In this document: piece after piece, positions 23,857-51,511 of the stretch | Layout of the letters: each line of letters starts with the position of its first letter | Numbering within the stretch: the stretch's first letter is position 1 | Sequence record: PZ445536.1 | DNA from: a phage | Length of the DNA stretch: 64,000 nucleotides | Strand: one strand, 5' to 3' | Translations under genes and position numbers: made by a program | Notes under the pieces: model-generated | Told to the model about the DNA's origin: nothing | Databases searched by the model: none | Seen by the model: the letters and a program-made list of their open reading frames with translations, nothing else

Positions 23857-23908
23857 CCTCATGTTATGTCAGTAAGACTACTATAACACAACACGAGGGA
23901 CTTGTAAA
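23857..23908 (-). promoter_or_regulatory. PeSL-like early promoter / stem-loop cassette upstream of the alt.-3-like ORF
   Basis: on the - strand: GTTTAC (-35), 17-nt spacer, TATAGT (-10); imperfect inverted repeat CCTCATG/CACGAGG brackets the -10 and includes the RBS; near-identical to 39084..39136. Confidence 0.55.
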
Positions 23909-25885
23909 CTACATTTTGAACTTTTTAGACATTCCGTTGATGTTAACCAAAGAAGCCAAGATTTGAGAAACTTCGTTTTCCTCTTCTTTTGATTCTTCTA
24001 CAAGGAATTGATTAAATCCAGCCATTGGACGAACTTCACCAGTTTCCATTAAATGGTCGCCATCATATACTGATTCTTCTAATTGTTCAGAAGGAGGAAC
24101 GATTGTACCTTCGATTAGATACTTGTTATAAGCAGTTTCTTTCATAAAGTACGTACTTACTTTATTAATCTTCAGTAAAATTCCACGCGGTAGAATAACT
24201 TCAGCTTCTGATGGAAATCCTGATAAATGACCTGGAACGATAACTTTGATTCGCTCAGCTCCTTTAATTACCATACCCACGCTAGTTTCAGCATCTTCAT
24301 TGGCATATGTAGAATGACTACCCATATGCATCAAATCTTCTGCATCAACAGAACCTTCTCCTTCGCCAGAAAATACTGCGCCGGAATCATCTAGAGCCAT
24401 ATAGTTTTTACCATGCTCACCGAAGATATTTGGTTTAAGCGATGTAGATACGAAGTTCTTGAAATAGAACATTTTGTTTTCAATGTTATGACGCAAAGTT
24501 TTAAAGGTAACTTCTTGTCCACGATAAAGCGTAGTTCCTGGAGGAAGAACTGAACCTTTAGCGAATGCAGAATCTAACGTCTCGATGTGCTTAATAGCTC
24601 GTTCCATATATTCTTCACGGGTAGAATCTGGTTTACCCAAAAGGAACGAGTTCATTTCAACATATGAATCTGCACAATAATCTTCAATTACATCAGATTC
24701 AGCTTGGGTTAATCCTTTTGGAGTTACTTCGGTGCTTGTGTATTCATATGCCTGAGCAGCAGATTCATTAATCAATTTATAAATGCCATTCATTACAAAT
24801 TGAATAATAGCTGTCTTTTCATCTGATGTAGCTTTAGAACCTTTAACTAAATCATTGATAATTTTCTTAATAACATCAAAGCTATTAGAAATATTAATGT
24901 CAGCAAGATCGCTTAAAATTTTATCAGTTTTATAATCAAAGAATTCTTTATTCTTTAAATATTCTTGAGAACCTTGATATGTTATATCGCTCTGCAGCTT
25001 GATAGATGGATCGCGTAAACGTGCATGGGCTAATGCAATATGATTTCGGAAGTTTTCTAGTTCATAATCATTAGATTTAAAACGAGAAGCACTTCTCATA
25101 CCACCGATAGCTCCTTTGCTGAAGTTTGAACCAATCTGGATAACGCCAGAGTTCATTGGTCCTTCTGCTTTATATACCGGAACTTTAGATTCAAACTCTT
25201 GATATTTCTTGGCAGCGAAGCTATCACCCTGAAGTGAAGCATCAACAGTAGAATATTGAGCTTGTGCTGCTAATCGACGACTAATTTTAGTTTTCTGAAT
25301 AACAGCTTGATCAGTGCGCTTATCATTTTCTAAAGCAATAGAAGCAGCAACAGCGACAGCTTTAGGAACAGCATTACCTGTTTTAACGTCTACATAAACA
25401 TCACCAACCTTTGATTCAACTTTTGTGAATAACTCAGTTGAAATAGGAGGTACACCTGGAATGTCTTCTAAATTGGCATTTTTACGGTAAACCATAATAT
25501 ATGCATACTTTTTATCATAGTCCCAGATTTCCTTTAAAAGAACATATCGACCTGCTCCTTTAGTACGTACTAAACGGTCAGCAATAACTTGTATTTGACG
25601 AGCAGCGCCATTTGTTTTACTTTTTAGTACGCGGAATAGGCATGCGTCAATTTTATACTGTTTCATTGTTTGAAGAGCAGTATCAAAAACAGCATTAATG
25701 ACGCCAATTGGATTTCCACCCAAGTTTCTAAGCTTAACTAGTGATAATTTCTCGTTGACACCTATCATTACGATATGCATCATTTTATCGCCCGGCTTAA
25801 CGTTTTTATTCGTATCACCGCCAGAGGTGTATGTACAAAAATCTAAATCCAGGAAGCACGCTTTCTTCACCGGCTTGAATAGCAA
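23909..25885 (-). CDS. Alt-like ADP-ribosyltransferase paralog, main ORF (N-terminal 50 codons lie in another frame); possibly frameshifted or a pseudogene
   Basis: 658-aa ORF begins at a TTG with no RBS; shares the conserved N-terminal domain and ART motifs (YRGQ, FVSTSL, EAEVILPRG) with the adjacent alt gene. Confidence 0.7.
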   Translation of the reverse strand: MLFKPVKKACFLDLDFCTYTSGGDTNKNVKPGDKMMHIVMIGVNEKLSLVKLRNLGGNPIGVINAVFDTALQTMKQYKIDACLFRVLKSKTNGAARQIQVIADRLVRTKGAGRYVLLKEIWDYDKKYAYIMVYRKNANLEDIPGVPPISTELFTKVESKVGDVYVDVKTGNAVPKAVAVAASIALENDKRTDQAVIQKTKISRRLAAQAQYSTVDASLQGDSFAAKKYQEFESKVPVYKAEGPMNSGVIQIGSNFSKGAIGGMRSASRFKSNDYELENFRNHIALAHARLRDPSIKLQSDITYQGSQEYLKNKEFFDYKTDKILSDLADINISNSFDVIKKIINDLVKGSKATSDEKTAIIQFVMNGIYKLINESAAQAYEYTSTEVTPKGLTQAESDVIEDYCADSYVEMNSFLLGKPDSTREEYMERAIKHIETLDSAFAKGSVLPPGTTLYRGQEVTFKTLRHNIENKMFYFKNFVSTSLKPNIFGEHGKNYMALDDSGAVFSGEGEGSVDAEDLMHMGSHSTYANEDAETSVGMVIKGAERIKVIVPGHLSGFPSEAEVILPRGILLKINKVSTYFMKETAYNKYLIEGTIVPPSEQLEESVYDGDHLMETGEVRPMAGFNQFLVEESKEEENEVSQILASLVNINGMSKKFKM

Positions 25886-25967
25886 AAATTTGTGGTATTT
25901 TATGCTTAGGATTTAAGTTAACAACCGGCGCCGAAGCGCCGTCAAATAATTCTGTAATAAGTTCCAT
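25815..25967 (-). CDS. N-terminal fragment ORF of the Alt-like paralog (50 codons, alt.-1-like)
   Basis: ATG with AGGA RBS; hand translation MELITELFDGASAPVVNLNPKHKIPQIFAIQAGEESVLPGFRFLYIHLWR*, collinear with the Alt N-terminus up to PGFRF, then out of frame. Confidence 0.6.
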   Translation of the reverse strand: MELITELFDGASAPVVNLNPKHKIPQIFAIQAGEESVLPGFRFLYIHLWR

Positions 25968-25970
25968 GAT

Positions 25971-28061
25971 TTATCCTTGAACGAACTTGTAAGGCATGTT
26001 TGCAATATCTATGCAAGACACAATAATTCCAAGAGATGATTCTACTTTCTGTTTAACATTTGATGAAACAAATGATGCAAAGTCAACTCTATCTTCTATA
26101 TCACCTGTCATTGCAACTACTTCGCCGGTTTCCATTAAACGGTCTCCGTCATAGATTACCGATTCGGTGAGTTCTTCGGTGGTCATAACTTCAGCTTGAA
26201 TGAGTTTTGTATTATTAGACGTGGTTCCGTCATTATTAGAAGCATCAGTTATTTTATTAACTTTGACCATCAATCCACGCGGTAGAATAACTTCAGCTTC
26301 TGTTGCTATTCCTAGACTTCCTGGATATACAACATTAACTTTATGAGCTCCATCAATTGCCCATCCTATTTGAACTTTAACGTATTCAGGATTTTCTTTA
26401 TACGCTCTTATTTCGTTTGGATTAATAGTTATTCCTTCTTCATTTTTATCAACTGTCAATTCATTACGAGCTTCTGGTTCTAAAAGACCAATACCAGCAT
26501 GTGTAATTCCAAAACGCCCAAAAATGATAGGAGTTAAAGAAGTAGATACAAAATTTCTGAAATAGAACACTTTATTTTTAACTAGTGCTTCGTATATAGG
26601 AGCAGTCATACTTTGTGCACGATAAACTGTAATGCCTTCCGGTATACGGTCACCATTTTCAAAAGCTGAATCTAAGTTATTTATAGCAGATTCAATTTCT
26701 TTTTCACTCATTACATCATATCGTTCTGGATTGTAGCGTCCTAAAAGAAGATTATTGATGTCAGTATATCCTGAACCACAATACTCTCTAATGCCGCGCT
26801 TTTGTGATGGAGTATATTTAGAACCATCACGGGCAATAGTAATATCAATCATTGGACCTGCACCAATTCCAGAAAAGCTATAAATCATTCGTTTGAGGAA
26901 TTTAGTTTTTGCTGCGTTCCAGGAATTTTTAGTTATTTCTTCCCAGACTTCATCTGGCTGTCCTTTACGGGTTTTATTATGTTTATCAAGCCAAGTATCT
27001 TTATATTCTTCAAAGAATTTATTAATAGCTGCTGCATACTTCTCTAAACATTTTATTGAAGTAGTTGGTTCATTTTTGATCGCATTAAGAATTACATCTT
27101 TAATTTTTTCAGAAACTTCATTAACCTCACTTTTTGAAAAGAATTTATAATCATAGTGAAGTTCATCTGCAGTTCCTTCGGCAATAATTTTTGCTGCCTT
27201 AGTTTTAGAAGCCAATGAATTAATTCCAAGTTTCATTTCTTCTGCTTCGGGAATTAAAGGAGCGGTAGCAGGTTTATTGAAATTAGCTGCGGTAGATTCA
27301 TACTTCTGGAATAATTCACTTTCAAATCTAGAAGATTCCAATGATTGACTTTGCGCAATTGCTCTACGGGAAATTTTAACTTTAACGATTACAGCTTGGT
27401 CAGAACGTTTATCATTTTCTTGTGCAATAGATGCTGCAATTGCCTCATTTTTAGTTACTTGAGCTCCAGTATCTTTATTGATATAAACATCGCCGACTTT
27501 CGATTCAACTTTAGTAAAGAGCTCGGTACTAATTTCCGGAACTCCTGGAATGTCTTCTAGTGATACATTTTTGCGATGTATAAGAATATATGCATACTTT
27601 TTATCATAATCCCAGAGTTCCTTAAGAAGGACGTATCTGCCACCTGAACGACTACGGATAAGTCTATCAGCAATAACTTGAATTTGTCGAGCTTGACCAG
27701 CGGTTTTAGACTTAAGAATACGAAGCATACAAGCATCAATTTTATACTGACGCATTGTTTGCATTGCAACAGTAAAAACTGAATTGATATAATTAATTGG
27801 GCTTGGACCAAGACCTTTTAATTTAGCAATTGAACCTTTAGCAGTTAATGTAAAAGGAACAATATGCATCATTTTATCGCCCATCTTTAAATCGCGATTA
27901 GTATCACCTCCAGATGTATAGGTGCATAAACGAAAGCCTGGTTGTTCAATTGCATCATCAACACGAACTGAAAAAATTTGTGGTATTTTCTTCTTTGGAT
28001 TTAAGTTTGTAATCGGAAGAGTAGTATCTTCGTCAAATAATTCTGTAATAAGTTCCATCAT
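25971..28061 (-). CDS. alt: Alt, capsid-packaged RNA polymerase ADP-ribosyltransferase
   Basis: N-terminus (M)MELITELFDEDTTLPITNL; ART triad R (VYRAQ), S-T-S (FVSTSL), E-x-E (EAEVILPRG); true start may be the second Met. Confidence 0.88.
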   Translation of the reverse strand: MMELITELFDEDTTLPITNLNPKKKIPQIFSVRVDDAIEQPGFRLCTYTSGGDTNRDLKMGDKMMHIVPFTLTAKGSIAKLKGLGPSPINYINSVFTVAMQTMRQYKIDACMLRILKSKTAGQARQIQVIADRLIRSRSGGRYVLLKELWDYDKKYAYILIHRKNVSLEDIPGVPEISTELFTKVESKVGDVYINKDTGAQVTKNEAIAASIAQENDKRSDQAVIVKVKISRRAIAQSQSLESSRFESELFQKYESTAANFNKPATAPLIPEAEEMKLGINSLASKTKAAKIIAEGTADELHYDYKFFSKSEVNEVSEKIKDVILNAIKNEPTTSIKCLEKYAAAINKFFEEYKDTWLDKHNKTRKGQPDEVWEEITKNSWNAAKTKFLKRMIYSFSGIGAGPMIDITIARDGSKYTPSQKRGIREYCGSGYTDINNLLLGRYNPERYDVMSEKEIESAINNLDSAFENGDRIPEGITVYRAQSMTAPIYEALVKNKVFYFRNFVSTSLTPIIFGRFGITHAGIGLLEPEARNELTVDKNEEGITINPNEIRAYKENPEYVKVQIGWAIDGAHKVNVVYPGSLGIATEAEVILPRGLMVKVNKITDASNNDGTTSNNTKLIQAEVMTTEELTESVIYDGDRLMETGEVVAMTGDIEDRVDFASFVSSNVKQKVESSLGIIVSCIDIANMPYKFVQG

Positions 28062-28081
28062 AGCCTCTCTAGTGTTTATTC

Positions 28082-28089
28082 TATTTATA
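28082..28089 (-). promoter_or_regulatory. late promoter TATAAATA (minus strand) upstream of alt
   Basis: + strand TATTTATA, i.e. TATAAATA on the - strand, about 20 nt upstream of the alt ATG with GAGAGG RBS in between. Confidence 0.6.
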
Positions 28090-28094
28090 AAATT

Positions 28095-28112
28095 AAAGGC
28101 CCGAAGGCCTTT
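28095..28112 (-). terminator. hairpin AAAGGCC-CGAA-GGCCUUU between the 62-aa ORF and alt
   Basis: 7-bp stem with 4-nt loop. Confidence 0.5.
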
Positions 28113-28299
28113 AATAATCTAGTGGTAAGAGAGTACGATATATTTCAAACTTTGGTCCTTTTTCATAGGCATCAAATGTTTCTGTAAATTTATTATAAGC
28201 GTATGCATCTACAAATTCGAGAATGACTTGTGATACAGAAGTAGAAACATCTCCACCTTCTTTTTGAGCAATGACAATTGTTTCTAAGTAAGCTTTCAT
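28111..28299 (-). CDS. hypothetical protein (62 aa)
   Basis: ATGA start/stop overlap with the ligase gene. Confidence 0.6.
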   Translation of the reverse strand: MKAYLETIVIAQKEGGDVSTSVSQVILEFVDAYAYNKFTETFDAYEKGPKFEIYRTLLPLDY

Positions 28300-29759
28300 A
28301 GACCAGTTACCTCATGAAAATCACCAAATACATCCTCGAATGTATTAGCTTTAGTTTTATCTTCACGTAAACGAATCGCAATCGGAAGAAATAATTTAAC
28401 GTAATCAGTGCGGCCATCAGATTTTAACCAACCGTTGCATTCGCACTCTAGAATTTTTCCAATATAATAATTTTGGTTTTCCATAATGCGAGTACGGTCA
28501 AGTTCATGCGATTTTACACCGGCTTTATCTTTTAAGCCTGAACCAGCATTTACCTTAATTTTTCCACACTCTGACTCAAGAATAAATCCACCTGCTTTAG
28601 TAGGGTCTTTACGGTGAGGATAAATTCCTACAATTTTTAAATCAACATCAATTACTTCTTTAAATTTATAAAGATTTTTTGAACGAGCATTTTCCCATAA
28701 TCCATCGATATTTTTGAGAATAATACCTTCAAGACCTTGGTCAATATATTTTTTATAAATTACCTTAGCTTCATTTAGGTTATTTACTACCTGGTTTTCA
28801 ATTAAAATTACTTTATCATAGCCTGATGTCATTTGTTCTAGTTTAGAAAAACGTACATCATATTTCAAACGAAATGCAGGAAGACCGTATATTTCTACCA
28901 ACGGAACATAATCCCAGACCTGAAACTTCATGCATTGTGCTTCTTTTTCTGAAATAGTTCCCTTTAAAGATTTATTAGCGATTCCATTAGAAGTAGTACG
29001 TGATTCAGCTACTTCAGCAAACTCTTTAGCTTTACTAATTTCAGGATAAGCATCAAAAAGAAAATCTAGGCCTTCTGGCTCCTTTTTAACTTGCTCATGG
29101 TATACCAATTCGCCATCAATTAACACACCTTCTGGATGAATCTGGCGGGCTTCAGCGGTCATTTTGATTAACTCTTCCTTAAGAAGATCTAATCCTAGAT
29201 ATTCATTACCAGCTCGTGATAAAAGACGGACATCATCTAATTCATCACCTCTAACTTCAGCAAAACACCGAGCTCCATCTGCTTTTAATTGTGCAAAGGC
29301 TGGAAATTTGATATTCTTACTAATGCCTTTTTCATCATAAGAACTTGCGAGCATTTGAGGTTGTTCAGGAATTAAACCTGGCCAAACTTTGTTTGCAATA
29401 GATACTGAAGCACCACATTCAAGGTCTCGCATCATCACTCGACGCAAAACTTCAACATCATCTTTTTTACCGTCAGTAATATAACCTACTAATTCCTCAA
29501 TTGCCGCATTTCCAGTCAATTTCCGAGTAGCTAATGTAAATTCAATGAAGTCAAGCATATCGGTAAGAGTCAACATTCCAAAACTCTGGGTAGCAATACC
29601 AGGTTTAGGCCATTTCTTGATATAATACTGCAACCCACGAGAATAAGTCAGACGATATACTCGTTTAAGCAATTCATTATCTTTATTCTTTTCAAGAATT
29701 GCTTGCTTCTGCTTAGTTGAACCAATAGATGCTATTTCGTTCAGAATTTTAAGAATCAT
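28296..29759 (-). CDS. 30: ATP-dependent DNA ligase (gp30-like), 487 aa
   Basis: 487 aa; N-terminus MILKILNEIASIGSTKQKQAILEKNKDNELLKRVY; adenylylation motif KADGAR. Confidence 0.93.
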   Translation of the reverse strand: MILKILNEIASIGSTKQKQAILEKNKDNELLKRVYRLTYSRGLQYYIKKWPKPGIATQSFGMLTLTDMLDFIEFTLATRKLTGNAAIEELVGYITDGKKDDVEVLRRVMMRDLECGASVSIANKVWPGLIPEQPQMLASSYDEKGISKNIKFPAFAQLKADGARCFAEVRGDELDDVRLLSRAGNEYLGLDLLKEELIKMTAEARQIHPEGVLIDGELVYHEQVKKEPEGLDFLFDAYPEISKAKEFAEVAESRTTSNGIANKSLKGTISEKEAQCMKFQVWDYVPLVEIYGLPAFRLKYDVRFSKLEQMTSGYDKVILIENQVVNNLNEAKVIYKKYIDQGLEGIILKNIDGLWENARSKNLYKFKEVIDVDLKIVGIYPHRKDPTKAGGFILESECGKIKVNAGSGLKDKAGVKSHELDRTRIMENQNYYIGKILECECNGWLKSDGRTDYVKLFLPIAIRLREDKTKANTFEDVFGDFHEVTGL

Positions 29760-30025
29760 TGTTCATCCTTTAGAGTTTGGTTTACAGCTCTATTATAAAT
29801 CAATTCATCATTAAGCTCAGTCAAAGACCTATGATATGTGGTTCTAACTTTATTTCCTTGCATCCAGTGCTTGACGTAAATGAAACCTTGCTCTACACAT
29901 TTTTTAAAAATTCGTTCGTCTTTTTGAGCTCGGAATTCTGGATTGCATCTAAAAAATTGATTTACGTGACCGTAATCACGTGTAGTATTACCTTCATTTT
30001 CATAAATAGTATGAACGACAAACAT
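29756..30025 (-). CDS. hypothetical protein (89 aa; 30.1-like)
   Basis: tight operon array, 4-nt overlap with gene 30. Confidence 0.65.
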   Translation of the reverse strand: MFVVHTIYENEGNTTRDYGHVNQFFRCNPEFRAQKDERIFKKCVEQGFIYVKHWMQGNKVRTTYHRSLTELNDELIYNRAVNQTLKDEQ

Positions 30026-30861
30026 TAGAATGCTCCTTGGAAAATATTATCACCACTAGTAGGTCTATTATACAAATACTCTATGCCACCGGGTTTAATA
30101 TAATTCCATGTCTGAAACGGATGTGTATAATATGGATGATATGGATTATAAGGATTAAATCCAGGAGTTCTCCAGGTAGTATTCCAACGAAAAGAATCGT
30201 TTTTAATCATCTTCTCGATTGCATCTTTTATAGCTTTTTCACGATCAAAACTTTCTTTATTTTCCTTCGGTGGAAAAAGCTTATTCTCTACATCATTCCA
30301 TGTATAAACTCGCTGTGCAGTTTTTGGAATACTGTCACGCTCTCCTCGAGCCATCCAATAAACTGGAACATTTAATATTTCACTCGCATGATCGCAGTGG
30401 TGAGCGAGATCGTCAATATAACAAATTACATTATATTTCTCTTTTGCCTTTTTGAACAACTCTTCTTTTGAAGAATCATGACCACACATCATTACTTCTG
30501 AGAAGGCACCAGGAAAAAGAGCATTCAAATTAAATTGACGATTCAGCAGAGCGTCAATAGAATCACCCAATGCTGTAACAGCTACAAAATTATAATCTTC
30601 TTTTAATTTGTTAATTACGCACAGAGCATCTTTATATGGAGACAAGTAACGAATAAAATCTGAACGATTGTATTTTTCAATTAACTTGACGCCAAGTTCT
30701 TCATCACAATTAAAGAGTTTACCTGGAGAAATAAATTTCTCATCTTGGATCATTTTTAAAATATGTTCCAACGGAAGATTATATTTCTGAGCAAAATAAG
30801 GAAGACCTGATTGCCAGCTTAAACATACTCCATCAATATCAGTTAAAATAGTAGGCTTCAT
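30025..30861 (-). CDS. HAD-superfamily phosphatase-like protein (278 aa; 30.2-like)
   Basis: N-terminal HAD motif I ILTDIDGV. Confidence 0.65.
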   Translation of the reverse strand: MKPTILTDIDGVCLSWQSGLPYFAQKYNLPLEHILKMIQDEKFISPGKLFNCDEELGVKLIEKYNRSDFIRYLSPYKDALCVINKLKEDYNFVAVTALGDSIDALLNRQFNLNALFPGAFSEVMMCGHDSSKEELFKKAKEKYNVICYIDDLAHHCDHASEILNVPVYWMARGERDSIPKTAQRVYTWNDVENKLFPPKENKESFDREKAIKDAIEKMIKNDSFRWNTTWRTPGFNPYNPYHPYYTHPFQTWNYIKPGGIEYLYNRPTSGDNIFQGAF

Positions 30862-32403: not shown

Positions 32404-32429
32404 TTTTATTCTCCGAGATGTTTAATTGT

Positions 32430-32469
32430 GGTACAGGTATATAATATCATGTCCTGTACCAAAGTAAAC
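32430..32469 (-). promoter_or_regulatory. PeSL-like early promoter / stem-loop cassette
   Basis: - strand GTTTAC, 17 nt, TATTAT; perfect 8-bp inverted repeat GGTACAGG/CCTGTACC brackets the -10. Confidence 0.55.
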
Positions 32470-32471
32470 AA

Positions 32472-32804
32472 TTATTTTACTACTTTCCAATGCTTCATGT
32501 CAAGTTTACCAACTTTTTTCATCTTCTCAATTAAGCGTTCGGCACGTTGGCGAGCTGTAACATAATGCCATTCGCCTAATTCATTTTGTTCAATTTTTCC
32601 AACGATTACTGTATTCAATTCATAAATCCAACCAGTAAAGAAATTATGAACTTGAATTGTAAAGGTGAAATCTGTTCCCATACCTTCTGTTGTTTCTACT
32701 TCAATAATATCACCTTCAACTGCCATTAAGAACCACATAGTTTCATCATATTTACCATTGAAGCATTTAGTTTTAACTGCAGCGTTCAGATTAATCGTTT
32801 TCAT
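32472..32804 (-). CDS. hypothetical protein (110 aa)
   Basis: minus-strand ORF. Confidence 0.6.
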   Translation of the reverse strand: MKTINLNAAVKTKCFNGKYDETMWFLMAVEGDIIEVETTEGMGTDFTFTIQVHNFFTGWIYELNTVIVGKIEQNELGEWHYVTARQRAERLIEKMKKVGKLDMKHWKVVK

Positions 32805-32877
32805 TTTATTCTCCTTTGTTTGTGTAAGATAATACTATCACAAAGGAACTATACTGTAAACAACTTTATGCAATCTT

Positions 32878-32910
32878 TGGAAAATAAAAAAGGACTCCCG
32901 AAGGAGTCCT
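32878..32910 (-). terminator. intrinsic terminator (AGGACUCC-CGAA-GGAGUCCU then U-tract on - strand)
   Basis: 8-bp stem; - strand continues UUUUUAUUUU. Confidence 0.7.
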
Positions 32911-32914
32911 CAAC

Positions 32915-35791: not shown

Positions 35792-35830
35792 GGTAGAGCT
35801 ATAATATCACAACTCTACCGTAAAGTAAAC
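35792..35830 (-). promoter_or_regulatory. PeSL-like early promoter / stem-loop cassette
   Basis: - strand GTTTAC, 18 nt, TATTAT; 7-bp inverted repeat GGTAGAG/CTCTACC brackets the -10. Confidence 0.55.
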
Positions 35831-36501: not shown

Positions 36502-37704
<1,203 letters not shown>

Positions 37705-37708
<4 letters not shown>

Positions 37709-38581: not shown

Positions 38582-39078
38582 AAAGTTTTAATAACCTCTA
38601 TAATATCGTCTTGAGAAAGACCGTTAATTAAAATATGATGTTCCGCCGGAGATTTAGAAATTTTAAAGCATGCCGCAACATCTTCTGCCATATCTGATGC
38701 GCTACGATTTGGATTACTAATTCCAAGACGATGTTTTCCCGTTAAAGGATTAACGATAATATAGCATTTACAGCTATTGATATGAACATTAGGTTGAGTC
38801 TGATTAATGAACACTTCACAATCATACTTAGCGAGTTGATTTTCTAAAAAGACTTTCATCTCCTCAACCGCATCAGGAAGCATATCACGGGCTTGCTCAA
38901 GACGACGATTTCGATATTCTTTAATGGTCGTTTTCCGCTTGACTTGCTTAGCTAAATCTTTCTTAAGATCGGTGATATATCCAACTCGACGATTTCCTTT
39001 GAATACAGAAATCCCATCTGTAGTATCACCGTATGCTTCAACGACCATTTCAGTAGTAATAAGCTGTAAATCCATCAT
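38572..39078 (-). CDS. alc: Alc-like protein (inhibitor of host transcription on cytosine-containing DNA), 168 aa
   Basis: position between the pseT array and rnlA and length match T4 alc; assignment by synteny, no search done. Confidence 0.6.
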   Translation of the reverse strand: MMDLQLITTEMVVEAYGDTTDGISVFKGNRRVGYITDLKKDLAKQVKRKTTIKEYRNRRLEQARDMLPDAVEEMKVFLENQLAKYDCEVFINQTQPNVHINSCKCYIIVNPLTGKHRLGISNPNRSASDMAEDVAACFKISKSPAEHHILINGLSQDDIIEVIKTLCN

Positions 39079-39083
39079 AAAGT

Positions 39084-39136
39084 CCTCATGTTATGTCAGT
39101 AAGACTACTGTAACACAACATGAGGGACTTGTAAAC
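39084..39136 (-). promoter_or_regulatory. PeSL-like early promoter / stem-loop cassette upstream of alc
   Basis: - strand GTTTAC, spacer, TACAGT; perfect 9-bp inverted repeat CCTCATGTT/AACATGAGG whose downstream arm includes the alc RBS; about 96 percent identical to 23857..23908. Confidence 0.55.
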
Positions 39137-39139: not shown

Positions 39140-40727
<1,588 letters not shown>

Positions 40728-40750
40728 AATAAAATGGGCCTTGCGGCCCA
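40728..40750 (-). terminator. hairpin GGGCC-GCAA-GGCCC plus U-tract between nrdB and denA
   Basis: on the - strand the hairpin follows the nrdB stop and is followed by AUUUUAUU then the denA ATG. Confidence 0.55.
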
Positions 40751-40754
40751 CTCC

Positions 40755-41933
40755 TTAAAAATATTTTTTAAAACTCATCATAACTTTATCATCAACATCA
40801 TTATCAATCTGTGCAACAAGGTAAGATGACAGTTCTACTTCTTGTGGCGCGGATTGAACATTATCAGAATTAAGATATTCACGAATCCAAGGATATGGAT
40901 GTTTAACCGGAGCATCGATAATTGGGCATGGAAGACCACACTGTTTCATACGAGATACAGTTAAGTAATCAATAAAGCTCCACATGCTATTTGTATTTAA
41001 TCCAGGAACATCGCCATCTTTAAATAAATGAACTGCCCAATCTTTTTCTTGGCGGTTAACTTCCATGAAAATATCAACTGCTTCTTGTTCACACTCTTGA
41101 GCAATTTTAACCCATTCATCGCCATCAGTACCAGATTGAAGTTGACGAATAATATATTGTGTACCTTTAAGATGAAGCTGCTCATCACGTGCAATGAACT
41201 TCATAATCTTTGCATTGCCTTCCATAATTTCCATGTTCTTATGGAAGTTAAAGGTACATGCGAAAGATACATAAAAACGAATAGCTTCCAATGCGTTGAT
41301 TACATGCAAACAGAGGTAAAGAGATTTCATTAGCTCACGCTTCCAATATGTCTCATGCTCAATAGCATCTTCAATAACATCTTCGTCTGCATTAATTTCT
41401 TTTTGGTATTCGATATCAGCTTTAGCGTTTTCCCAATAACGAGTTTTAGTCAGAACATCATCATAATAACGTCCAATGGATTCAGCACGTTTCATAATAG
41501 CTTCATCTAATACAATCTCATCAAATACCTTCGATGGATCAGTATAAAGATTTCGCATGATATGTGTATATGAACGAGAGTGAATAGTTTCACTAAAAGT
41601 CCACGTAGCAACCCATGTATCAAGGCTTGGGTCTGAAATTAATGACATAAGTACAGCAGACGGCGCACGACCCTGAATGCTATCCAAAAGTGATTGATAC
41701 TTCAGATTATTAGTAAAAATATTTTGCTGATACTGAGGAAGCTTATTAAACTGTGCAGCATCCATCATTAAGTTTACTTCTTCAGGACGCCAGAAAAATG
41801 ATAATTGCTTTTCGGTTAAATCTTCAAAAACTTTATGGCGTTGAATATCATAACGCGCAATACCAAGACCTGAACCAAAAAACATAGGTTCTTTTAAAAC
41901 ATCAACTGGATTTGTATTAAAAACTGTGCTCAT
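40755..41933 (-). CDS. nrdB: ribonucleotide reductase small subunit NrdB, uninterrupted
   Basis: 392-codon continuous ORF with di-iron/tyrosyl radical family features; no intron-like interruption. Confidence 0.9.
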   Translation of the reverse strand: MSTVFNTNPVDVLKEPMFFGSGLGIARYDIQRHKVFEDLTEKQLSFFWRPEEVNLMMDAAQFNKLPQYQQNIFTNNLKYQSLLDSIQGRAPSAVLMSLISDPSLDTWVATWTFSETIHSRSYTHIMRNLYTDPSKVFDEIVLDEAIMKRAESIGRYYDDVLTKTRYWENAKADIEYQKEINADEDVIEDAIEHETYWKRELMKSLYLCLHVINALEAIRFYVSFACTFNFHKNMEIMEGNAKIMKFIARDEQLHLKGTQYIIRQLQSGTDGDEWVKIAQECEQEAVDIFMEVNRQEKDWAVHLFKDGDVPGLNTNSMWSFIDYLTVSRMKQCGLPCPIIDAPVKHPYPWIREYLNSDNVQSAPQEVELSSYLVAQIDNDVDDKVMMSFKKYF

Positions 41934-44249: not shown

Positions 44250-44566
44250 AAGTCCTCAACTTGAAAATCGTCTTTAAACAATCGGTTAACTATATGAGCT
44301 ATTATATCACCATGACACGGCTTTGGTTTACATGTGCATCCTAGCCTCATTCCACGTAAAGGCTCTAAATGTGCTTTAGTTATTTCTCCGGATTTAATTC
44401 GACGTATAAAATCTTTTTTGAATAATTCAATGGCAGCCTCCCGGCTGCCAGCATCTTTACCGACGTAATTTCCCCAAAATGTACCGCGGTGAATATTAAC
44501 ATCAAAGTCGGATTTGTATTTATTCACTACCCGGCATAGACGGCCCGGTTGGTAATAATTCTTCAT
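44240..44566 (-). CDS. hypothetical protein (108 aa; nrdA.1-like)
   Basis: minus-strand ORF overlapping the nrdA start by 10 nt. Confidence 0.6.
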
Positions 44567-44795
44567 ATTGTTTTTCCGTTAAAACAGTAATATCGTAGTA
44601 ACAGTCAGAAGAAGTTTTAACTGTGGAAATTTTATTGTCAAAATACTCACGAGTCATTTTATGAGTATAGTATTTTTTACCATAAATGGTAATAGGCTGT
44701 TCTGGTCCTGGAACTTCTAACTCGCTTGGATTAGGAAGTGTAAAAAGAACGACACCAGAAGTATCTTTAAATCGTAAAATCATATATCCTCTCAA
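44520..44795 (-). CDS. hypothetical protein (91 aa; nrdA.2-like)
   Basis: minus-strand ORF. Confidence 0.55.
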
Positions 44796-44806
44796 TTAAA
44801 TTAAAA

Positions 44807-45667
44807 TTATACCGCCATTTTTCCTTTAATTGGCAGATGAGATACATAGTTGTTAAGAACAAAATTATGAGGCTTTGCAAATTGACTCAACCAAAATACC
44901 TGCGATTCTGTGTCCCATTCATCAAATTCATCTGGAAATTTTAATTGTAATTCGCATAAATCCATAGGTTCACGACGCAAAATTTCTTTACATTGTTCTA
45001 CGTGATTCATATAGATATGAGTATTACCACCAGAAAATATCAAATCTCCCGGAATAAGATTACACATCTTAGCTACAATATGAACTAACGTAGCATATGA
45101 TGCAATATTAAATGGAAGACCGAGGAAAACATCTACCGAACGTTGATACCACTGCAAATCTAAATAGCCATTACGCACATTAAACTGATAGAACATATGA
45201 CAAGGAGGTAATGCCATATATTTAAGTTCAGCTGGATTCCACGCAGAAACAATTTGACGCCTATCATTTGGCAGTTTTTTAATACGATCAACAACTTCTA
45301 TAATTTGGTCTACACCGCCAAAATCACGCCACTGTTTTCCATAAATTGGACCAAGTTCACCGCTATGGTATCCTAAATCTTTTGCCTGATTTTCGTAATT
45401 TTCATCCCAAACTGTTTTGCCTTGGATTAACGAATCGTGTTGAATTAATCGTAAATCATTAACATTTGTGCTTCCTGATAAAAACCATATTAGCTCAGCA
45501 ATGCATGCATTCCAGGCGAGCTTCTTAGTTGTTACTGCAGGAAAACCTTTGGTTAAATCCCAACGCAATTTAGTACCGAACAGAGCAATTGTTCCTGTGC
45601 CCGTTCGGTCATCGGTTTCATAGCCATTTTCAAAAATGTCTTTAATTAAATCTTGGTATTGTTTCAT
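44807..45667 (-). CDS. td: thymidylate synthase, 286 aa, uninterrupted
   Basis: continuous 286-codon ORF; catalytic region LPPCHMFYQF. Confidence 0.92.
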   Translation of the reverse strand: MKQYQDLIKDIFENGYETDDRTGTGTIALFGTKLRWDLTKGFPAVTTKKLAWNACIAELIWFLSGSTNVNDLRLIQHDSLIQGKTVWDENYENQAKDLGYHSGELGPIYGKQWRDFGGVDQIIEVVDRIKKLPNDRRQIVSAWNPAELKYMALPPCHMFYQFNVRNGYLDLQWYQRSVDVFLGLPFNIASYATLVHIVAKMCNLIPGDLIFSGGNTHIYMNHVEQCKEILRREPMDLCELQLKFPDEFDEWDTESQVFWLSQFAKPHNFVLNNYVSHLPIKGKMAV

Positions 45668-45712
45668 TTAGTACCTTATATAAATTATAATACATTTTAT
45701 GAAGCTAAATAA

Positions 45713-46060
45713 TCAATACGGTTTAGCATCAAATTTTCTCTCAATTTCAGGTGTGAAATATAATTCTTTACCGCGTTTGGAAAAACGACCAATAATATGA
45801 TAATTATTCTCATCAAACGTGATATTACCAATATCCATAGCTTTCAACCAAATATCAATATTTCTATCCAGCTTTATGTCAAAATTCCAATACGGAGAAC
45901 TATTACCGAAAATACTGCAAGCGGATTCAGTGAAACAACTACTATAAATCTTGTCTTTAGGAACTACTAATTGATAAACGCCTTTAATAAACTGAGGACC
46001 CTGCCACTTTGGCTGTTTCTCATCTTTTTCTAATAGAATAGGGTAATAATTAAAATTCAT
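45713..46060 (-). CDS. hypothetical protein (115 aa) inserted between frd and td
   Basis: ORF with ATG start occupying a 412-bp interval between frd and td; no motif recognised. Confidence 0.55.
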   Translation of the reverse strand: MNFNYYPILLEKDEKQPKWQGPQFIKGVYQLVVPKDKIYSSCFTESACSIFGNSSPYWNFDIKLDRNIDIWLKAMDIGNITFDENNYHIIGRFSKRGKELYFTPEIERKFDAKPY

Positions 46061-46079
46061 ATTTCCGCCACGCGTTATT

Positions 46080-46906
<827 letters not shown>

Positions 46907-46916
46907 ATTATTTTCC

Positions 46917-47159
46917 TTAAACAGACTTTTTCACAATTTTCCAATCGGCTTTAAACTGCTCGACGTCAGAATGGTAAATCCAAAATCCTGCGCTTTCACC
47001 GTCTTCATAAAGCGGACACCCATCACATTCATCTTCCCATCCCATGCCACGTAAAAGGTGTTCAGCTTTTTCAACAAGTTCAGAATCTTTACCGATGATA
47101 TTAAAATACCATTTACCTCTAACTTCCGAATCTTTGATGCTCTGACGTTGTAATCTCAT
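46917..47159 (-). CDS. hypothetical protein (about 80 aa; frd.2-like)
   Basis: ATG at 47157..47159 with AGGAG RBS (ORF track extends to an upstream alternative start). Confidence 0.55.
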   Translation of the reverse strand: MRLQRQSIKDSEVRGKWYFNIIGKDSELVEKAEHLLRGMGWEDECDGCPLYEDGESAGFWIYHSDVEQFKADWKIVKKSV

Positions 47160-47180
47160 TTTATTCTCCTTAGTTGATAA

Positions 47181-47214
47181 GGCTATAGTATCATTACCAT
47201 AGCCCGTTGTAAAC
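47181..47214 (-). promoter_or_regulatory. PeSL-like early promoter / stem-loop cassette
   Basis: - strand GTTTAC, spacer, TACTAT; inverted repeat GGCTAT/ATAGCC around the -10. Confidence 0.5.
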
Positions 47215-47216
47215 AA

Positions 47217-47519
47217 TTATTTTTGAATTTTATCGAGCCACTTACCAAGCTTAATCATTTCTTTAGTAGCCTTTTCCATACTTCTGAACTTGACCAATAG
47301 AGGATAGGTATCGACACCCATAACTAAACCGGTTACAAGACTGTGTTCACCCACAAGCCATAACGAATACGTTTGAATATCGAGCCCGTAATTTCTGTCT
47401 TTATGGACCCGTACACCCATCACTTCAAATTTCTCACTAGCTTTTTCTACCGCATCCAGGAAATCATCTTTAGTCATATTAGGCCTTAAAAGTTTTTCGC
47501 AAAAGTTCAATGATTTCAT
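47217..47519 (-). CDS. hypothetical protein (100 aa; frd.3-like)
   Basis: minus-strand ORF. Confidence 0.6.
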   Translation of the reverse strand: MKSLNFCEKLLRPNMTKDDFLDAVEKASEKFEVMGVRVHKDRNYGLDIQTYSLWLVGEHSLVTGLVMGVDTYPLLVKFRSMEKATKEMIKLGKWLDKIQK

Positions 47520-47859
47520 CTACATTGTTTTCATCTACAATGCAGTGAATTTTTGTTACGCCAGAAACCTTGTCTTTGACTTCATCTTCTTCAGAAGTCG
47601 GTTCTTTATACTCACGAAAACAATGAAATTCATCTTCGCAAATTTCTAAAAGTCTATCTTTGAGGTAAAAATGCTTTCCATTTGCGCATTCAATGTGTTT
47701 TACTGCTTTATATCCATTAGCGACGGAAACTTCTTTAACTTCAAACCATCCGCCATTATCTCGAATAGCTTTAACGATTGATGAATTAGAACGTGGGCTA
47801 TAATTAATAAATGTATCAATAAGTCTTGGAACAAGTTCATACTTTTTACCGGTATACAT
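47479..47859 (-). CDS. hypothetical protein (126 aa)
   Basis: ATG with GAGGAAAC RBS. Confidence 0.6.
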   Translation of the reverse strand: MYTGKKYELVPRLIDTFINYSPRSNSSIVKAIRDNGGWFEVKEVSVANGYKAVKHIECANGKHFYLKDRLLEICEDEFHCFREYKEPTSEEDEVKDKVSGVTKIHCIVDENNVDEIIELLRKTFKA

Positions 47860-47903
47860 TACGGTTTCCTCATTTTAATAGGGGCTTGATAGCCCCTTGA
47901 TAA

Positions 47904-48131
47904 TTATTGTTCAATCAGTCCCATGTAAAATTCTGCGTCTTCAGAATCCATGCCATCACAATATTCATTAGCCATAAAGCGGGTGAGGTCTTCAAGAGGA
48001 CCTTCAATGACAATAGAAAAATTGCAATAATTGGGATCATCGTGAATACTTGTGATACTAAGTTCAGGATAACGATTACGAATAATTTCTTCGATATATT
48101 CAAAATCAACGATGTCAATATCAACTTTAGC
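47904..48131 (-). CDS. hypothetical acidic protein (about 76 aa)
   Basis: ATG at 48129..48131 with AGAGGAAAA RBS; ORF track extends further upstream. Confidence 0.55.
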
Positions 48132-48230
48132 CATATTATTTTCCTCTTTAATCATCAGCAGTATTGCCGATAGTTGTATAGTACCATGGAAGGACAAGGA
48201 TGTAAACTGTTTTGTGAAAAAAATTTTTGA

Positions 48231-48260
48231 AATAAAAAAAGGGGACCTCTAGGGTCCCCC
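48231..48260 (-). terminator. strong intrinsic terminator downstream of gene 32
   Basis: on the - strand GGGGACC-CUAGA-GGUCCCC followed by UUUUUUU. Confidence 0.8.
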
Positions 48261-48282
48261 AATTAATTAATAATATAATCTA

Positions 48283-49191
48283 TTAAAGGTCATTCAAAAG
48301 GTCATCCAGGTCCGTGTCATCAGCACTAGATGAACTGCCAGAGCTTGAGCTCATAAAATCATCTTCAGTTTTTGTATTGAAGTCATCAACATTGAATGCA
48401 TCCAAATCATCAGCAACTTTATCAGCTTTCTTAGCAGCAGTCGCTGCGGCACCGCCCATCACAGCAGTTCCCATAACTTGACCGAATTTAGTATTCAGTT
48501 CTTCAAATGATTTGAATTTATCTTTAGAAGTCATTTCAGAAAGGTCAACCATTTGTTCGAACAGTTCTTTCTGGAAAGATTCATCATCAATGTTTGGAAT
48601 CGCAGATTGATTCAGGAATTTAGATTCGTCGTAGTTACTAAATCCAGAAACTTGTTTAACTTTCAGTACAAAGTTAGCACCTTCCCACGGACAAGTTACA
48701 TCAACTGGAGTTTCACCCATTTCAACATCAACCGCAATCATTGCATTGATTTTATCCCAGATTTTCTTACCGAAACGGTATTTAAATACTTTACCTTCGT
48801 TTTCTGGAGCAGCTGGGTCTTTTACTACAAGAATGTTAGCCCAGTAAGAAGTTTTACGTTTAACAAGACTGTACTCTTTATTGTCAGTGTTGTACAGATC
48901 ATTTTTACTAATGTATTGACATACTGGGCAAGAATCGTAATCACCGTGGGTAGATGAACAGTTTTCAATATACCATTTACCATTTTTCTTGAAACCGTGA
49001 TTTACAAGAATTGCGAATGGTGCTTGTTCATCATTTTTAGACGGAAGAAAACGAATTACTGCTTGACCGTTACCCGCATTGTCGAGTTTCAGTTTCCACT
49101 CGCCTTTATCTTCAGAAGAAAAACCACCTTTATTTCCAGCCAGTTTAGCCATTTGTGCAGCGAGTTCAGCAGTAGATTTACGTTTAAACAT
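48283..49191 (-). CDS. 32: single-stranded DNA-binding protein gp32
   Basis: [25 protein letters not shown]-terminus, zinc-binding Cys/His cluster, acidic Ser/Asp-rich C-terminus. Confidence 0.93.
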
Positions 49192-49290
49192 TTTTATTTC
49201 CTTTTTAATTTAATTAACAGTTGGTGCTATGACGATGTATGACCTCATAGCTGGTCAGTGAGATAATTATAATCTATTTATAATAAGCAA

Positions 49291-49944
49291 TTAATACTTA
49301 CAAGATTTCACAGTTTCAATGAAAACACTTTTAGCTTTCTGTGAATCAATATTTAAAATTTTTCTATAAGCCTTTAACTTTATAGAATAATTATTCCAGA
49401 CTAAATTATCAGTCTGTTCATCATGTTTATCAATTATATTTAAAAATGAATCAAGCAAGATAAACGTCTCAAACGAAATTATGTTCGACTGAAGCAGTTT
49501 AAAAATATAACTTGATTGAACTTTTGGATTATATTCAAAAATTTCTTTAAAAGCAGAAACTTCAACTTTTTTACTAAAATAATAAATGTTGCGAATATCT
49601 TCTTCAAACTTAAATTTAATTTGCTTTAAGCGTCCGATATATTCACGATAAAACACAAGTGCATCAGCGTCAGAGATGTCACCAATCCAAGCATCTTGGT
49701 TAGCAACCAAATTACTTATAAAGATTAAAGCAAGTTCCTTTAATTTATATTTTTCTGATAACTTCTGGAAAAAATACTTATCCCTTCGCTTTTGATAAGC
49801 GGCATCAGACACCCGCATGCACCAATTATACTTAATTACATCATACTTTCCATTCATATGTTGTTTTATCATTAAGTATAATTTATAAACTGATTTACCA
49901 TCAATGTATCTTTCACCACCAGCAGGCATGCGGAGTTTAATCAT
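49291..49944 (-). CDS. 59: gp59 helicase loader, 217 aa
   Basis: 217 aa, position between genes 32 and 33. Confidence 0.85.
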   Translation of the reverse strand: MIKLRMPAGGERYIDGKSVYKLYLMIKQHMNGKYDVIKYNWCMRVSDAAYQKRRDKYFFQKLSEKYKLKELALIFISNLVANQDAWIGDISDADALVFYREYIGRLKQIKFKFEEDIRNIYYFSKKVEVSAFKEIFEYNPKVQSSYIFKLLQSNIISFETFILLDSFLNIIDKHDEQTDNLVWNNYSIKLKAYRKILNIDSQKAKSVFIETVKSCKY

Positions 49945-50279
49945 AGTAGAAAATCTAATGTATTAGTTTTTTCACAACGAACAACAGAAGGACGTAAAAG
50001 ATTTTCGTCAATAGCTTCTGACTGAATTTTTTCAATTATACCCGAAGGAATAAATTTAGCAAATTGAGTTTCAGGAATAGAATTTTCTTCCAAGAATGCT
50101 GTCGTAGCTTCAAGATAACTCATTCCAAACTCTTCTACCATTTTTTCAATAATAAATCCATTTTCTTGACGATCAAGAAGCTTTGCTATTTCATCCTTTT
50201 CTTTCTTAATTGAAAGTTCTTTTTCTGAAAGACCGGTCTCATCGACCGGACGAATATCATTTAGAGAAAACTGTGTCAT
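49941..50279 (-). CDS. 33: late promoter transcription accessory protein gp33, 112 aa
   Basis: ATG at 50277..50279 gives MTQFSLNDIRPV and 112 aa (ORF track starts 3 codons upstream). Confidence 0.85.
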   Translation of the reverse strand: MTQFSLNDIRPVDETGLSEKELSIKKEKDEIAKLLDRQENGFIIEKMVEEFGMSYLEATTAFLEENSIPETQFAKFIPSGIIEKIQSEAIDENLLRPSVVRCEKTNTLDFLL

Positions 50280-50526
50280 AAAGTTCAACTACCTCTTCAG
50301 TTTCAGCTTCAAACACATCACGGTTATCTTTATGATACAAAGCTAATAGACGATTAAACATCTTACCATCAACGCCAAGTTCATCTTTGGCACGAATTCG
50401 AATATCTTTAATCAGTTCATTATAACCGGAAATTTTCAGTTTATGATCAGATGCTTCTTTAATAAATTTAGCCAAGTCTTCGCCATGGATAGCTTCATCA
50501 AATTCAACCATTTCTTTTTTAGCCAT
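50257..50526 (-). CDS. dsbA: DsbA dsDNA-binding late transcription protein, 89 aa
   Basis: 89 aa, overlaps the start of gene 33 by 23 nt. Confidence 0.8.
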   Translation of the reverse strand: MAKKEMVEFDEAIHGEDLAKFIKEASDHKLKISGYNELIKDIRIRAKDELGVDGKMFNRLLALYHKDNRDVFEAETEEVVELYDTVFSK

Positions 50527-50534
50527 TATTCACC

Positions 50535-51452
50535 TCAAAATTCATTAATGCTATTAGTTAATTTAGAAAGACCCGCTTTTACAAAATATGAATAAATTTT
50601 GCCACGCGGTGGTAATTTATATGAATTATAGTAATTCACAATGTTTGAAGCAATATTATCAGGAATATAATCAAAATCAATTAGAACTAAATTTTCTTTA
50701 TAACGATTATATTCAGATTCTGTGAGAAGCACCTTAGCTTGCTCACGGTCATTAGCAATAGCTTCAACGATTGAAGTTTTCATTGAAGGAGTTCGTTCAC
50801 CTTCAACTCTGGTAAACCAAAAGTCAGATCGTACTTTAACTGAAGCAACGTTATCCTTTTTGTCGCCTTTAAGGATTTTAGTCATGCAATCAATTTCAGC
50901 AGAACCGCTTTTAATTTTAACCCATTTCTTATGCATCGGTGACCATTGCTTAACATTTGGATATTTGTGAAGCTGTGTAAAGTCACCATCCGATGAAATG
51001 ATTAAAATCTTGTGTCCTTCTAAAGAGAACTTTTTAACAAGAACAGCAATGTGGTCATCCGCTTCATACTTATCAATATCCATAACAATGTATGGCATAT
51101 AAGCTTTCAATTCATCTATAACTTTATGGCTGGATTCAAAATAACCTTCCCAGTCCCAAGTAGATTCTTCTCGTGCTTTTCCACGGTTTTTCTTATAATA
51201 ATAAGCGAAATCACGACGCCAGTATCCAGATTTCGCGTTATCAATACACAGTACAATTTTAGTGTATCCAAGCGTTTTTGCTTTTTTGACATTAAACTTA
51301 ATTGAGTTCAATATCAAATGACGAACCATTGATAAATTAATTTTTTCTTTATCTGGGAAGTTTACTAAAGCAGTTGAAAGCGCAATTTGACTAAAGTCAA
51401 TAAAGCAAATTCCTTCTTTGTAATCTTCATCCAACATCATTTCTAAATCCAT
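50535..51452 (-). CDS. rnh: RNase H / 5-prime-3-prime exonuclease (FEN family), 305 aa
   Basis: ATG at 51450..51452 with GAGG RBS gives MDLEMMLDEDYKEGICFIDF and 305 aa; ORF track start is a TTG. Confidence 0.9.
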   Translation of the reverse strand: MDLEMMLDEDYKEGICFIDFSQIALSTALVNFPDKEKINLSMVRHLILNSIKFNVKKAKTLGYTKIVLCIDNAKSGYWRRDFAYYYKKNRGKAREESTWDWEGYFESSHKVIDELKAYMPYIVMDIDKYEADDHIAVLVKKFSLEGHKILIISSDGDFTQLHKYPNVKQWSPMHKKWVKIKSGSAEIDCMTKILKGDKKDNVASVKVRSDFWFTRVEGERTPSMKTSIVEAIANDREQAKVLLTESEYNRYKENLVLIDFDYIPDNIASNIVNYYNSYKLPPRGKIYSYFVKAGLSKLTNSINEF

Positions 51453-51473
51453 ATGAACCTCGTTCAATTAGTG

Positions 51474-51511
51474 AGATTTCTATTATATACCATCCAAATC
51501 TTAAAGTAAAC
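51474..51511 (-). promoter_or_regulatory. early promoter with flanking inverted repeat (PeSL-like) for rnh
   Basis: - strand GTTTAC, 18 nt, TATAAT; inverted repeat AGATTT/AAATCT brackets the -10. Confidence 0.55.

Follow-up and report, generated by a model that had tools for sequence, protein, structure and literature searches.

Early promoters of a T4-like phage with spacers that pair with their own leaders, and a possible translational gate on read-through transcripts

Why should the early promoters of a T4-like phage lie inside inverted repeats? The question arises from a 64,000 nucleotide (nt) stretch of phage DNA in sequence record PZ445536.1 (the window, meaning the whole stretch that was analysed). 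The initial annotation had pointed out six minus-strand intergenic sites between positions 23857 and 51511 at which a sigma-70-type early promoter appeared to be bracketed by an inverted repeat. Judged by sequence identity, the window is that of a Tequatrovirus: across the alc region its identity to several hundred genomes of Tequatrovirus (T4-like) phages is 96-99.8%, with Escherichia phage teqhad as the top match. Alignment to T4 (AF158101) places the six sites 5' of alt.-3, 30.7, cd.2, alc, frd.1 and rnh, all of them on the minus strand, which is the early-gene strand. At five of the six the spacer between the -35 and -10 elements is complementary to the promoter's own leader, and in one class of cassettes the hairpin would close over the Shine-Dalgarno (SD) sequence of the gene that follows.

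All six promoters were present as described, with spacers of 16 or 17 nt, and each stands immediately before an SD and an ATG that lie 20-35 nt past the promoter. A seventh cassette, absent from the earlier list, was recognised 5' of 30.8. The form GTTTAC[AT]-N16/17-TAnnnT holds at all seven sites, most of them with TG ahead of the -10. Each site was folded as RNA and compared with 200 dinucleotide shuffles, from which a z-score and the count of shuffles folding as well were obtained. Hairpins were found in front of alt.-3, 30.7, 30.8, cd.2, alc and frd.1, and all of these cassettes are intergenic.

In three cassettes (class A: alt.-3, alc and 30.8) the SD lies in the 3' arm of the hairpin. 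The alt.-3 promoter (23880..23909, minus strand, as are all seven; GTTTACA, 17-nt spacer, TATAGT, TG 5' of the -10) is the ortholog of the T4 promoter at 123093. Its hairpin (23854..23901; -23 kcal/mol, z -4.98, 0/200 shuffles as good) has the 5' arm in the spacer, the -10 within the stem and the SD, GAGG (23857..23860), in the 3' arm; the ATG is at 23848. The alc promoter (39107..39136; GTTTACA, 17-nt spacer, TACAGT) is enclosed by a hairpin at 39080..39130 (-26.1 kcal/mol, z -5.65, 0/200) with the SD, GAGG (39084..39087), in the 3' arm and the ATG at 39078. Both stems comprise about 22 pairs and contain the -10 hexamer. The 30.8 promoter (32832..32861; GTTTACA, 17-nt spacer, TAGTAT) has a hairpin at 32811..32848 (UUCCUUUGU / ACAAAGGAG; z -2.34, 5/200) whose 3' arm includes the SD, AAAGGAG.

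In the other three (class B: 30.7, cd.2 and frd.1) the hairpin ends 7-20 nt before the SD, so that the earlier statement that the arms are placed alike at every site does not stand. The 30.7 promoter (32441..32469; GTTTACT, 16-nt spacer, TATTAT) has arms UGGUACAGG / CCUGUACCA around the -10 (hairpin 32429..32461; z -3.30, 1/200) and the hairpin lies about 15 nt upstream of the SD. The cd.2 promoter (35801..35830; GTTTACT, 17-nt spacer, TATTAT; Pe133295 in the T4 record) and the frd.1 promoter (47185..47214; GTTTACA, 17-nt spacer, TACTAT) carry stems of 11-12 pairs in which the 3' arm overlaps the -10: GGUAGAGUUGUG / UAUAGCUCUACC at 35792..35819 (z -5.25, 0/200) and GGGCUAUGGUA / UACUAUAGCCU at 47180..47205 (z -4.75, 0/200).

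The sixth listed repeat, AGATTT/AAATCT at the rnh promoter (51482..51511), is a product of chance: at 51474..51501 it folds no better than shuffled sequence (z +0.49, 122/200 as good), and spacer-leader pairing at the T4 counterpart has a p of 0.35. The inverted repeats of the initial annotation were borne out at five of the six sites (z -3.30 to -5.65), with stems longer than it described. The frd.3 promoter (48178..48207) likewise has no bracketing hairpin (z -1.75). The rnh promoter is the first of its co-oriented block and the only one with no co-oriented gene upstream, gene 34 being divergent; it cannot receive read-through and has no hairpin, an internal control that agrees with the mechanism proposed below.

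SD accessibility was expressed as the partition-function cost of opening a 7-nt SD region in two RNAs: a read-through RNA starting 60 nt 5' of the -35, and an own-promoter RNA with an assumed start 7 nt after the -10. The predicted costs in read-through and own-promoter RNA, respectively, are 12.9 vs 1.8 kcal/mol for alt.-3, 8.2 vs 1.2 kcal/mol for alc and 10.0 vs 0.2 kcal/mol for 30.8. At 30.7, cd.2 and frd.1 the SD is sequestered in neither RNA: opening it costs no more than 3.6 kcal/mol, compared with 8-13 for class A. Between 23.5 and 51.6 kilobases, 44 translation starts were defined heuristically on the minus strand (median about 3 kcal/mol); the class A genes rank 2-4 among them, and the start at rank 1, denA, reflects a mis-assigned SD. 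Folding thus supports well, at the computational level, that the SD is predicted to be hidden in read-through RNA only at alt.-3, alc and 30.8. The earlier proposal that a read-through hairpin hides the ribosome-binding site (RBS) holds in prediction for alt.-3 and alc, to which 30.8 is added, and the fold comparison shows no such difference at 30.7, cd.2 and frd.1. Since half of the real cassettes lie away from the RBS, its sequestration is no general explanation, and one mechanism does not cover all.

A different arrangement was observed in the nrdB-denA gap (40727..40775, minus strand), where UAAGGAG is followed by a terminator-like GUGGGCC-GCAA-GGCCCAU hairpin and then by UUUUAUUAUG. This hairpin stands between a distant SD and the AUG of denA, and may join the two halves of a split ribosome-binding site.

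The comparison with chance that the initial annotation had proposed was run on T4, with 39 GTTTAC-type minus-strand promoter candidates from the early regions. When spacer and leader were permuted separately and the -10 was kept fixed, spacer-leader folding reached p<0.01 in 18/39 promoters, with 0.4 expected; the same level was reached in 9/250 (3.6%) random minus-strand windows (Fisher p 8e-12), a very large excess at the early promoters. When all spacers were recombined with all leaders, the own leader was the best partner in 15/39, with about 1 expected (permutation p<=1e-5), so the complementarity is promoter-specific and not a by-product of the common consensus. The T4 promoters are bimodal in this respect: hairpin energies range from -14 to -24 kcal/mol in about 17 of them, and the others lack a hairpin. 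The promoters of the ipI/ipII/ipIII region (65413, 65799, 66498, 73572 and 73939) fall in the same hairpin set. In the window, a generic sigma-70 scan does not discriminate, promoter-like sites being no commoner than in shuffled sequence. Nine of the 39 are of class A; by our gene assignment, these precede motB.2, modB, nrdC.8, regB, denV, alt.-3, 30.8, alc and ndd.4. The functions of regB, modB and alc are all in host takeover.

Conservation was followed in the same region of RB69, Bp7, Mineola and vB_EluP_RZH (RZH), and for the alc promoter in eight further phages. The alc spacer pairs with the alc SD region in eight lineages of Tevenvirinae, namely seven named genera and the unclassified Klebsiella phage HMGUkp2. 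The hairpin is significant singly in each (p<=0.004) and the arms differ. In 5'/3' order they are CCCTCATGTT / AACATGAGG in Tequatrovirus, TCTCCTCAT / ATGAGGAGA in Dhakavirus, TCCTCATCAG / CTGATGAGGA in Jiaodavirus, TCTCCATTTGGTTG / CAACCAAATGGAGA in Karamvirus, TCCTCATTTCGTT / AACGAAATGAGGA in Winklervirus, TCTCCTCAG / CTGAGGAGA in Roskildevirus and CCTCGTTTGTT / AACAAACGAGG in HMGUkp2. Kanagawavirus has TCCCATTTTGTT / AACAAAATGGGG(A), the two being parts of ATCCCATTTTGTT... and ...AACAAAATGGGGAT; as its 3' arm has one G more than the 5' arm has C, a G is left bulged. The MAFFT alignment of alc (eight genera) was out of structural register, and alignment-free chimeras and rank-by-rank pair counts were used instead. 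Own spacer-leader combinations average -21.1 kcal/mol vs -12.5 for swapped chimeras (p 5e-5), and each of six stem positions beside the SD shows two to three standard pair types across the lineages.

A covariance model built from the Tequatrovirus cassette recovered 7/9 divergent alc promoters in the loci searched and missed that of HMGUkp2; it also matched antisense strands and unrelated promoters, and its alignment was left out of the pair counts. An Alc-based search of IMG/VR returned five near-identical loci only, of no use for covariation, and a 15-mer scan of the same database for the cassette gave mostly random matches with about nine real copies. Within Tequatrovirus, stem polymorphisms of the alc/alt.-3 cassette fall only at two wobble pairs (G.U/A-U and U.G/C-G/U-A) and are all pairing-compatible, six sequences being too few for significance.

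Compensatory changes occur at other cassettes as well. The cd.2 stem shows them in RB69 and Bp7, with GGTAGAG/CTCTACC of T4 replaced by GGTAGGACT/AGTCCTACC in Bp7. Those at frd.1 amount to four different arm pairs, the arms at the same promoter varying in T4, RB69, Mineola and RZH. The 30.7 arms are kept in T4 and RB69 and are replaced by others in Mineola. What is conserved is structure rather than sequence, between genera and between paralogous cassettes, as the initial annotation had argued.

Around the -10 of the alc promoter of Acinetobacter phage AB-Navy71 (Twarogvirinae; locus L022, 213..268) there is a 17-bp hairpin, TTTGATAAGACTATTGA / ...GGTCTTATCAAA, with the SD outside, so the architecture reaches beyond the Tevenvirinae.

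Complementarity of spacer and leader, specificity for the own leader, compensatory conservation and the predicted difference in SD accessibility are the ground on which a mechanism is proposed. Since transcription starts downstream of the 5' arm, the hairpin would form only in RNA entering from an upstream promoter, and own-promoter RNA would carry the 3' arm alone. In class A, the gene would stay untranslated on read-through RNA, be it delayed-early or begun at a middle promoter; immediate-early RNA from the own promoter could be translated, and synthesis would be tied to the short period in which the early promoter fires. The proposal presupposes that transcripts begin 7 nt past the -10, that read-through RNA crosses every site and that translation is affected. 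In class B the read-through-only hairpin probably acts on the RNA, and our guess is stability, processing or insulation between cistrons. The reading that T4-type early promoters carry spacers complementary to their own leaders, and that class A acts as a translational gate on read-through RNA only, is given a probability of about 60%.

Near the 30.7 cassette a near-consensus sigma-70 promoter (TTGACA, 18 nt, TAAAAT; 11/12 matches) was observed at 32474..32503 (minus strand), and also in T4. It lies 35 nt 5' of the 30.7 promoter, with a predicted start about 6 nt ahead of the 30.7 hairpin, which in transcripts from this promoter would therefore be a 5'-terminal stem-loop.

Whether the structure acts as RNA was approached through strand asymmetry. 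Among 17 T4 hairpins, by minimum free energy, the sense strand is stabler than the antisense in 15 (mean -18.5 vs -13.3 kcal/mol), with 34 G.U pairs in sense vs 3. A stricter count used an alignment that takes no account of the type of mismatch and covered only positions outside the TGn/-10 motif; in 35 hairpins from five phages it gave 326 Watson-Crick pairs, 14 G.U, 4 A.C and 8 mismatches of transversion type (p 0.03). Both the G.U bias and the link to the SD point to sense-strand RNA.

Several observations weigh against the gate and against an RNA role in general. Class B hairpins are as well conserved as those of class A yet clear of the SD, and the alc hairpin is lacking in RB69, as it is in TH40 and Aeromonas phage 25. 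The excess of G.U pairs in the first count is inflated by the conserved G/T-rich TGTG motif, and that in the stricter count is only modestly significant, some of the cassettes being related. The arms are 93% Watson-Crick. With DNA parameters most sites fold on the antisense strand too, and 30.7, cd.2 and alc fold about equally, and weakly, on both strands; this antisense folding, together with the Watson-Crick arms, leaves room for a role at the DNA level. In RB49/phi1 the stem-loop of one promoter-early-stem-loop (PeSL) element reduced the expression of lacZ downstream of it to the same degree as a strong terminator (PMC2839356; Arbiol 2010), so attenuation at the T-even hairpins is not to be dismissed. 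In the searchable literature no transcription-start, term-seq or ribosome data were found for these sites.

A PeSL in the classical sense is the first alternative: the stem-loop would be a terminator or attenuator isolating small genes and the cassette a recombination linker, both being selected functions. It has behind it the definition of the element and the experiments in RB49/phi1 and, as T-even analogues, T4 early promoters with AT-rich stem-loops (both in PMC2839356). As to termination, no U-tract follows the hairpin at any of the seven sites, and a terminator scan of the window calls none of them terminator-like; an intrinsic-terminator reading of the seven was rejected on this ground. 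Two real terminators in the same region, both G+C-rich hairpins with a U-tract on the minus strand, were called: one at 32890..32911, 29 nt 5' of the 30.8 promoter, and one at 48240..48260, after gene 32 and directly 5' of the frd.3 promoter.

The recombination half of this alternative has more to draw on. The cassettes of alt.-3 and alc are identical at 52 of 54 positions from GTTTAC to GAGGA, the homology ends exactly at both borders, and the SD is in the downstream arm of both, which upholds the near-identical pair of the initial annotation. The alt.-3 promoter is built differently in Bp7, Mineola, RZH and RB69, with a palindrome within the spacer; as other genera have this different alt.-3 promoter while the alc hairpin stays at alc, it is probable that the Tequatrovirus lineage acquired its alt.-3 cassette as a copy of that at alc. 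The window and T4 cease to be homologous about 20 nt 5' of the alt.-3 cassette, where T4 lost most of a second alt paralogue, and again across the frd.1 cassette, where the window phage has an extra 100-codon open reading frame (ORF) and different arms. The T4 promoters are mosaic, many pairs being alike in one half (5' or 3') only. Set against this, the arms differ by site, one pair only in the window has homology longer than about 25 nt, and of the non-intron indels that separate the window from T4, about five in all, two abut a cassette and three others do not. A linker role also fails to explain why the stems evolve by compensation and why the SD is included. The evidence for the recombination substrate of the initial annotation is circumstantial and the sample small: a single duplicated cassette, promoter halves that are mosaic in T4, and the two indels, out of some five, at a cassette. 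Being repeated and similar in part, the cassettes would also offer homology patches for recombination, which we regard as a consequence and not as the selected function. As a whole the classical PeSL explanation is unlikely.

Some individual mosaics were observed. The leader acaactatcaactactgatacggatttggagaataaaATG is common to at least six T4 early promoters with unrelated spacers (27080, 53943, 55384, 70696, 163673 and 167086), and recurs in part at 48150..48178 of the window; T4 166807 joins the spacer of one family to the leader of another. Several genera have, at different promoters, a recurring palindrome (CACAAGGAnGTG, or ACCACAAGGATGTGG) that is contained entirely in the -35/-10 spacer: at T4 2458, 50973 and 167086, at rnlA of RB69 (L012, 15760) and at the alt.-3 promoters L013 32235, L014 31240 and L015 31809.

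The second alternative, that the repeat works as DNA (a cruciform, a fold of single-stranded DNA during replication or recombination, or a site for a dimeric protein) and modulates the promoter or makes recombination hot spots, would account for the Watson-Crick content of the arms, for the similar folding of both strands at 30.7, cd.2 and alc, and for a repeat centred on the -10, where melting occurs. It is hard to square with arms that differ everywhere, which leave no common protein site; a shared protein-binding site was rejected for this reason. Class A has effective loops of 15-30 nt or stems reliant on G.U, both poor for cruciforms; the antisense DNA strand of alt.-3 has no significant fold (z -0.78), G.U exceeds A.C by 14 to 4, and the 3' arm tracks the SD between genera, which is sensible for RNA only. 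A DNA-level function as the explanation is accordingly considered improbable. The last alternative is that the repeats arise by chance or follow from the extended consensus of T4 early promoters (TGTG before the -10, a self-complementary TATA-rich -10). The rnh repeat, the innermost G.U pairs contributed to several stems by the conserved TGTG and -10, and the generic sigma-70 scan agree with it. It is refuted at 5/6 sites by the permutation with the -10 fixed, the shuffles, the random windows and the chimera test; covariation between genera also speaks against it, and it can hardly hold.

The remaining differences between the window phage and T4 are as follows. A second, full-length alt paralogue lies at 23909..25885 (minus strand); T4 keeps only the remnants alt.-1 and alt.-2, and Bp7 also has two alt copies. 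Small ORFs without a T4 counterpart at the same positions are found on the minus strand at 47217..47519, 37406..37708, 45713..46060 and 46661..46906. The td and nrdB introns of T4, mobE/nrdB.1 and segG are missing. A bidirectional terminator-like hairpin (23532..23553, both strands), called as a true terminator by the terminator scan, lies between the convergent genes 54 and alt.-3. Over the whole window, none of the Rfam covariance models was matched at gathering threshold.

T4 is a reference system for timed phage gene expression. If the translational gate operates, it would contribute, as a third factor beside promoter shut-off and RegB cleavage, to the sharp fall in early protein synthesis, and would be a simple cis-encoded timer restricting the toxic takeover proteins Alc, RegB and ModB to immediate-early transcripts; making ModA is very toxic (Hinton review, PMC2988021). 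The PeSL concept is also qualified, the stem-loop being selected, at least in T-even phages, as a structure tied to the downstream RBS and not merely as a terminator or linker. In annotation and engineering, moving a promoter or a leader alone would break a co-evolved pair. The stronger proposition, that anti-SD spacers at a sizeable share of T-even early promoters (9 of 39 in T4) form a start-dependent gate by which own immediate-early RNA is translated and the read-through RNA still present once those promoters have been shut off is silenced, and that this both works so and has gone undescribed, is put forward tentatively, with the odds somewhat against it; in it the alc gate would have been kept by compensatory evolution across at least eight Tevenvirinae lineages.

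Among known systems the PeSL is nearest in form. It is a strong early promoter with a stem-loop, described in RB49/phi1, where the subclasses listed include loops that overlap the -10 or are situated between it and the -35 (PMC2839356); in T4/PST the stem-loop is just upstream of the promoter (PMC4122927; Comeau 2014). The elements agree with those of the window in their sigma-70-type early promoter with a stem-loop, their intergenic position in variable early regions followed by an SD and the start of a small, often uncharacterised gene, the loops between -35 and -10 or over the -10, and the G-T pairs noted in stems. PeSLs are further associated with indels between close relatives and with mini-circles as signs of recombination, to which the two indels abutting a cassette in the window may correspond. 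The window promoters also fit the PST/T4 consensus TTTACW-N17-TAYWAT, and the terminator-then-promoter layout at 30.8 (32890..32911) and frd.3 (48240..48260) is that given for PST/T4 PeSLs in PMC4122927. The elements differ in that RB49/phi1 stems are polyG/polyC with assigned terminator activity (PMC2839356), whereas the arms of the window are AT-rich, site-specific, placed around the -10 and without a U-tract, with the SD inside the hairpin in half of the cases. In the accessible text of the two PeSL papers (PMC2839356, PMC4122927) neither RBS sequestration nor covariation is proposed or reported. T-even analogues flanking the internal-protein (IP) loci consist of a T4 early promoter and an AT-rich stem-loop, the size of which varies (Repoila 1994, as cited in PMC2839356); these resemble the present cassettes in both respects, and differ in that the description there makes them local elements of the IP loci and linkers for recombination. 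Intrinsic terminators share the stable RNA hairpin between co-oriented genes; the cassette hairpins of the window are without a U-tract and undetected by the terminator scan. It is acceptable to call the promoter-hairpin a known kind of T4-family element, PeSL-like in a wide sense; in that sense the match made in the initial annotation stands, and it does not extend to a terminator signature or to the hairpin position of T4/PST.

The nearest parallel in function is the gate of the T4 genes e, soc, 49 and I-TevI, in which a hairpin covers the SD and/or AUG in long RNA started upstream, and transcripts from an internal promoter, without the 5' arm, are translated (PMC3014915, Uzan and Miller 2010). 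The structures listed there do not include alc, alt.-3, 30.8, regB or modB, and neither that review nor that of Hinton (PMC2988021) mentions hairpins over early promoters. A literature search, with the main T4 genome review outside its reach, found no report of the gate extended to early promoters. By geometry, with the start assumed 7 nt after the -10, the promoters of the window likewise lie within the region of the 5' strand, and the predicted SD sequestration is found at alt.-3, alc and 30.8 and is missing at 30.7, cd.2 and frd.1. The known cases differ in using a late (gp55) promoter, which delays expression. The window promoters are early and of sigma-70 type, so any temporal effect would be the opposite, with expression confined to the first minutes. 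By this analogy, the mechanism known with late promoters at e, soc, 49 and I-TevI would, on the translational-gate reading, extend to early ones.

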